NCBI RefSeq assembly: GCF_056712565.1
Contig: NZ_CM160072.1
Strand: one strand, 5' to 3'
DNA length: 64,000 nt
The notes below the pieces were generated by a model. It saw only the letters and a program-made list of their open reading frames with translations. It was not told where the DNA came from and made no database searches. Position 1 is the stretch's first letter; each line of letters opens with the position of its first letter. Shown in pieces: positions 52,443-52,647 of this stretch. The translations under genes were made by a program, and so were the position numbers.

Positions 52443-52647
52443 AATGAATGTCTGACTCTCAATATTTTTCGCCCCGTCATGGTAACGGACTCAGGGCAAA
52501 TAGCAAATAACGCGCAATGGTAAGGTGATGTGCGCAGCAAAGCGATGTTAGTGGTATACTTCCGCGCCTGGATGCAGCCGCAGGTGTGGGCTGCTGTATT
52601 TTTCCCTATACAAGTCGCTTAAGGCTTGCCAACGAACCATTGCCGCC

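Follow-up and report, generated by a model that had tools for sequence, protein, structure and literature searches.

A conserved stem-loop, probably not a terminator, near the 5' end of the Escherichia coli thiI mRNA

The 5' untranslated region (UTR) of ompA is laid out as hp1-ss1-hp2-ss2, and the leader of thiI in Escherichia coli resembles it in having two hairpins, the first close to the 5' end, with an A/U-rich single strand between them and the initiation region after them, in being conserved among enterobacteria and in carrying its structure on the sense strand. Three other kinds of described system share features with this leader. As in the intrinsic terminators and attenuators of the thr, pyrBI and pyrE type, a GC-containing stem and a U-rich run lie in the 5' UTR and are oriented with the downstream gene. 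The HMP-PP (thiS motif) riboswitch is a terminator-embedded aptamer of a class found with thiS genes in other phyla; the thiI leader likewise places a small hairpin and a U-run before a thiamine-related gene, with a conserved stem base and flanks and a variable distal stem. Finally, as in excludon-like arrangements and other face-to-face promoters, the leader of thiI and the distal leader of xseB are each antisense to the other. No regulation of thiI itself is described, and no leader element is annotated for it.

The window, by which we mean the whole stretch of 64,000 nucleotides analysed here, is E. coli DNA and carries dxs-ispA-xseB on the minus strand and thiI (ATG at 52648) on the plus strand, followed by yajL and panE. 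Using a 301-nt query over the spacer between xseB and thiI, we found matches in 5424 of 5426 complete E. coli genomes, in single copy each. The spacer (205 nt) differs from that of K-12 MG1655 at a single base (52534, G in the window and A in K-12), and K-12 data are therefore directly transferable to the window (window position = NC_000913.3 position - 388901). Nothing is annotated within the spacer in the K-12 record. A literature search found no paper describing a thiI leader element, and the papers that name both thiI and xseB concern deletions only. The features of the thiI promoter and leader are as follows.

52552..52560, plus strand: thiI promoter with the extended -10 TGGTATACT, recognised in the sequence, without a good -35
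52561..52567, plus strand: GC-rich discriminator TCCGCGC between the -10 and +1 of thiI, nearly invariant in the alignment
52568..52569, plus strand: thiI transcription start site (TSS), from the SMRT-Cappable-seq operon table (forward TSS of b0423, K-12 441469 = window 52568)
52574..52594, plus strand: first hairpin (HP1), GCAGCC-G-CA[GGUG]UG-GGCUGC, from sequence, folding and covariation
52595..52610, plus strand: U/pyrimidine-rich single-stranded linker UGUAUUUUUCCCUAUA, from sequence, with a U5 run at 52599-52603
52611..52628, plus strand: second hairpin (HP2), CAAGUC[GCUUAA]GGCUUG, from RNAalifold on the plain MAFFT alignment
52629..52650, plus strand: CA-rich translation initiation region CCAACGAACCAUUGCCGCC and AUG, invariant in the alignment, without a Shine-Dalgarno sequence

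Full-length thiI transcripts begin at window 52568 according to SMRT-Cappable-seq, whose TSS coordinates are perhaps 0-based and thus uncertain by 1-2 nt (thrL is given as 147, compared with the known 148). The TATACT hexamer that the earlier note had called -10-like is present and is the -10 of thiI, with the TSS 8 nt downstream, but it lies at 52555-52560 and not at 52553. It is preceded by TGG, which makes it an extended -10, and the motif TG(G/A)TATACT was invariant in all 68 distinct orthologous leaders of the alignment. A scan for consensus promoters and terminators called neither this extended -10 nor the hairpin. Each of the three TSSs mapped here (one for thiI and two for xseB-ispA-dxs) follows a recognisable -10 hexamer at a distance of 7-8 nt, in support of the transfer of coordinates from K-12 to the window. 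With the start at K-12 441469 (window 52568), the thiI leader is 80 nt long, HP1 occupies about +7 to +27 and the U-run reaches to about +36. The hairpin is thus part of the thiI mRNA, on the thiI strand, and the suggestion of a thiI-oriented leader structure was correct. GC-rich discriminators such as CCGCGC are typical of the stringently controlled (ppGpp/DksA) promoters of rRNA and tRNA genes; stringent control of thiI through its discriminator would be plausible for a tRNA-modification enzyme.

The hairpin and U-tract have the sequence claimed for them, and 45 nt separate the U-run from the thiI ATG (52648), as previously stated. GCAGCC (52574-52579) is followed by gcaggtgtg (52580-52588), GGCTGC (52589-52594) and TGTATTTTT (52595-52603). 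HP1 is better drawn as six base pairs, a bulged G, two further base pairs (C52581-G52588 and A52582-U52587) and a GGUG tetraloop, which folding places at -11.4 kcal/mol, compared with -10.3 kcal/mol for six base pairs closed by a 9-nt loop. As a stem it falls within the stable GC-rich range of intrinsic terminators (about 5-14 bp with a short loop), at the weak end. Single-sequence folding statistics of the leader gave z = 0.12 and z = 0.38, the longer fold having taken in untranscribed sequence, and HP1 judged from the E. coli sequence only is no better than chance. What places it above chance is its conservation with compensatory changes across genera.

For the comparison we used 80 thiI loci from species-representative genomes of about 25 enterobacterial genera and one Pectobacterium. 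A divergent xseB lies upstream of thiI in all 79 loci with enough flanking sequence, with a spacer of 174-329 nt. Invariant or almost so in the alignment are the extended -10 with the GC-rich discriminator, the sequence CCUGGAUGCAG and HP1 at its base, as well as HP2 and the CA-rich start region that has no Shine-Dalgarno sequence. So is a GUAY motif with a U/C-rich run behind it, the two recurring at a variable distance from the stem. HP1 itself is always equally distant from the -10 across the approximately 25 genera. Its interior differs by genus with pairing retained, being GCC/GGC in E. coli, GCAC/GUGC in Raoultella, GUGGC/GCCGC in Cedecea and UGCAGCGGC/GCCGUUGCA (GCGGC/GCCGU) in Buttiauxella, and in Pectobacterium it is an AU-rich stem of 14 bp.

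A covariance model of the leader, built from 23 sequences, matched exactly once in each of 79 of the 80 loci and once in the window, where the thiI leader was its only match within 64 kb. The alignment fitted to this model has 89.8% of its cells paired, compared with at most 41% when the partners were slid, and double changes occur in 10 of 15 pairs; none of 500 shuffles matched the observed values. For the core clade, aligned with plain MAFFT, RNAalifold also returned HP1 and HP2, and 93.8% of the cells were paired. Covariation within the core clade is modest (double changes in three of 12 pairs), so that the strongest covariation comes from the more distant genera. In HP1, 47 cells hold G-U, which pairs on the plus strand only, and five hold A-C, which would pair on the minus strand only, which indicates selection on the thiI-sense RNA. 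HP1 is thus a real, evolutionarily conserved stem-loop close to where the thiI mRNA of E. coli begins.

In the three loci with long spacers, those of Phytobacter diazotrophicus, P. ursingii and 'Kosakonia sp. S29', the HP1 loop contains an insertion of about 120 nt, which folds as a long imperfect hairpin and is possibly a small mobile repeat. The stem base of HP1 and the U-run after it are retained in these loci. P. massiliensis has a 22-nt extension in the HP1 loop.

HP2 shows double changes in five pairs of the model-fitted alignment and no strand preference (13 G-U and 14 A-C cells). It is longer and in two parts in the Buttiauxella/Cedecea group. The 19 nt upstream of the thiI AUG (CCAACGAACCAUUGCCGCC) are almost invariant between genera and contain no recognisable Shine-Dalgarno sequence. 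An invariant helix of 4 bp, AUGA/UCAU, is possible between the AUG and codons 4-5 (region 52629-52671).

We consider it about an even chance (roughly 0.5) that the thiI leader is of the ompA kind, composed of HP1, a U-rich linker, HP2 and the initiation region, with HP1 serving as a structural 5' stem-loop. The mRNA begins at 52568-52569 and the stem at 52574, which places a conserved sense-strand stem-loop at the very 5' end of the transcript. By analogy with leaders of the ompA type we infer a stabilising and insulating role. HP1 is the first of the four parts of the leader and is followed by the U-rich single strand, by HP2 and by a CA-rich, unpaired start region without a Shine-Dalgarno sequence. 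HP1 would most likely shield the 5' end of the thiI mRNA from 5'-end-dependent decay (RppH/RNase E), and HP1 and HP2 together would sequester sequence otherwise able to pair with the weak initiation region. A two-hairpin leader with compensatory conservation throughout the Enterobacteriaceae suggests that the expression of thiI, an enzyme of both tRNA thiolation and thiamine synthesis, is tuned after transcription start, and this leader fronts a start codon that has no Shine-Dalgarno sequence and is overlapped by the antisense transcript of the dxs operon.

The thiI leader differs from that of ompA in length (80 nt compared with 133 nt), in having no Shine-Dalgarno sequence and in starting with about 5-6 unpaired nucleotides. 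The latter count, taken from the listed TSS, carries the coordinate uncertainty of 1-2 nt; work on ompA by Belasco reportedly found protection to be best with no more than 2-4 unpaired nucleotides. In addition, the near-invariance of the flanks (CCUGGAUGCAG ... CUGCUGUAY) is stronger than a generic stabiliser needs, and so is the persistence of the U-run, which nearly all genera have at about +32 to +38. Together with the 5-6 unpaired nucleotides, these two properties keep alive the readings in which the leader stops some transcripts or senses a signal.

The first of these holds that HP1 and the U5 run form a weak intrinsic terminator or attenuator at which some thiI transcripts would halt (about +33 to +36), whether constitutively or as modulated by a factor such as NusA, an antisense RNA, a protein or the level of UTP. 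We regard it as unlikely. We scored hairpins followed by T-tails with a d'Aubenton-Carafa-type score d, on which terminators exceed 0, a threshold that 17 sites in the window pass. In E. coli, the HP1 stem of -11.4 kcal/mol followed by the tail UGUAUUUUU ranks 38th of the 1415 candidates in the window, and the 38 sites reaching its level compare with 15.3 in dinucleotide shuffles, an enrichment of about 2.5-fold. Yet its d is -11.6 at best, the consensus scanner made no call, and the U-tract in UGUAUUUUU is interrupted next to the stem (UGUA). Nearly all genera have a T-run of 3-7 after HP1, and five leaders with T7 runs score d >= 0. These are, however, five out of 63 distinct orthologous leaders, of which only 11 reach the E. 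coli value and for which the median d is -25. The geometry is not conserved either, the distance from stem to U-run being 0-8 nt among orthologues and Atlantibacter having UUCUCUC instead of the run.

The thiI leader also differs from the terminators and attenuators of the thr, pyrBI and pyrE type in its sub-threshold score, its interrupted U-tract, its unconserved geometry and the lack of an antiterminator, a conserved leader peptide or a mapped 3' end. RNAalifold returned only HP1, HP2 and the invariant 4-bp AUG helix, with no conserved alternative (antiterminator) helix. A 16-codon open reading frame (ORF) at 52572-52622 begins 4 nt from the thiI TSS and crosses HP1 and the U-run. The ORF opened by AUG 52572 has 16 codons in E. 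coli, three in Salmonella and only the start and stop (ATG-TAA or ATG-TAG) in Buttiauxella, the AUG is replaced by AAG or ACG in two lineages, and the overall range is from one to more than 25 codons. Neither its length nor its start codon is conserved, and we therefore rejected attenuation through a leader peptide starting at AUG 52572.

Transcript ends give a similar picture. Neither Term-seq (Adams 2021; LB 0.4, LB 2.0 and M63) nor the TRS study reports a plus-strand 3' end between K-12 438376 and 443036, so that within the detection limits of these two published E. coli maps there are no 3' ends at the U-tract, one of the outcomes that the earlier note had said would refute its reading. 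Plus-strand ends are reported in the Adams 2021 data down to about 785 reads. The absence is not decisive, as very short RNAs may escape Term-seq and one of about 36 nt could be lost in library preparation. The proposal of an attenuator, or of the terminator of a short transcript, is thus unsupported, in view of the sub-threshold score, the unconserved geometry, the lack of an antiterminator helix or leader peptide and the lack of a mapped 3' end. Its companion statement that the hairpin cannot terminate the upstream genes holds, dxs-ispA-xseB lying on the minus strand; a terminator for these genes was ruled out in addition because no U-run follows the stem when it is read on the minus strand. 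The terminator reading of HP1 is weak, and we class HP1 among the conserved stem-loops of 5' UTRs, not among the terminators. The U5 run of E. coli is part of the linker and lends HP1 only a weak, sub-threshold likeness to a terminator, at which no more than a minor fraction of transcripts would stop. For annotation, a leader hairpin followed by a U-run should not be called a terminator without 3'-end data or conserved geometry.

The structure might instead serve the opposite strand, either as part of the long 5' UTR of xseB-ispA-dxs or through loop-loop contacts of HP1 and HP2 with an antisense RNA, which we hold to be distinctly unlikely. SMRT-Cappable-seq gives two reverse TSSs for b0422, b0421 and b0420 (xseB-ispA-dxs), at K-12 441373 (window 52472) and K-12 441545 (window 52644). 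The features of the distal promoter are as follows.

52652..52660, minus strand: distal xseB-ispA-dxs promoter with the extended -10 TGATAAACT, within thiI codons 2-5, its TSS 8 nt downstream
52644, minus strand: distal TSS of the xseB operon, from SMRT-Cappable-seq (K-12 441545), 4 nt before the thiI ATG

The earlier note did not include this promoter, which transcribes the thiI leader on the other strand. The TSSs of thiI (52568, plus strand) and of the distal xseB promoter (52644, minus strand) face each other 77 bp apart, and as the distal promoter fires toward that of thiI, the two leaders are mutually antisense over 52568-52644, a mapped opposite-strand TSS with an overlapping transcript. 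A minus-strand RNA 3' end was found in two published data sets 67 nt upstream of xseB, at K-12 441408-441410 (window 52507-52509). This end does not depend on Rho, has an intrinsic-terminator score of 1.16 and is preceded by a small hairpin, GCGCA..UGCGC (52512-52535, minus strand), which contains the only base that differs from K-12 (52534). Transcription from the distal promoter to this end would yield an antisense RNA of about 136 nt. The end coincides with the conserved GUUAUUUGCUA, which we take for the -35 region of the xseB proximal promoter (TTGCTA, 16 nt, TACCAT at 52484-52479, TSS at 52472).

The overlap of the transcripts, the approximately 136-nt RNA and the lack of strand preference in HP2 (13 G-U, 14 A-C) speak for a role on the minus strand or in the pair of transcripts. 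So do codons 2-8 of thiI, where TGATAAACT lies on the minus strand and where no synonymous site varies among 81 loci, unlike codons 9, 12, 14, 15 and 19. This invariance could, however, equally stem from constraints on the initiation of thiI translation, and HP1 is kept on the thiI-sense strand (47 G-U against five A-C), and its complement would often be mismatched. It is also here that the locus departs from excludon-like arrangements: HP1 is selected on the sense strand only, and any effect of one transcript on the other is hypothetical.

Quite improbable, in our estimate, is that the leader is a small cis-regulatory RNA of the Enterobacterales, a terminator- or pause-embedded sensor of a protein or small ligand, maybe acting with the xseB antisense RNA. 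Such a sensor would be formed by the invariant stem base and flanks (CCUGGAUGCAG ... CUGCUGUAY), the variable distal stem and the ever-present U-run. If it exists, it would couple ThiI (s4U in tRNA and sulfur transfer to thiazole) to Dxs, which supplies DXP for thiazole and isoprenoids. Rfam cmscan over 51500-53500 on both strands returned, at E <= 10, only a spurious snoRNA match elsewhere and neither a TPP nor a thiS/HMP-PP riboswitch. Unlike the HMP-PP riboswitch, the thiI leader thus has no Rfam match at this threshold, and it shows no sign of ligand binding.

Very improbable is a DNA operator, in which the inverted repeat TGCAG-N11-CTGCA would bind a dimeric repressor just downstream of the thiI start. 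The outer half-sites TGCAG and CTGCA and their flanks are nearly invariant and the centre is variable, which speaks for such a site, but the interior changes are compensatory, preserve pairing and are often G-U, which fits RNA pairing and not protein-DNA contacts. The spacing of the half-sites varies as well, with the insertion of about 120 nt in Phytobacter and the 14-bp stem in Pectobacterium.

That a chance hairpin lies without function beside a chance T-run has next to no probability left, since the fold z-score of 0.12 and the approximately 15 sites of such quality expected by chance in the window are outweighed by compensatory conservation over about 25 genera, one match per genome and a constant distance from the -10, which already refute it. 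A repeat element of the REP or MITE type was ruled out, as the sequence occurs once per E. coli genome and the model matched once in the window.

At the other end of the gene, the published 3' end of thiI (K-12 443040-42, plus strand) and that of yajL (K-12 443003, minus strand) share one strong hairpin, at about 54100-54141 of the window. It has about -25 kcal/mol and poor U-tracts and is apparently a bidirectional terminator between the two convergent genes.
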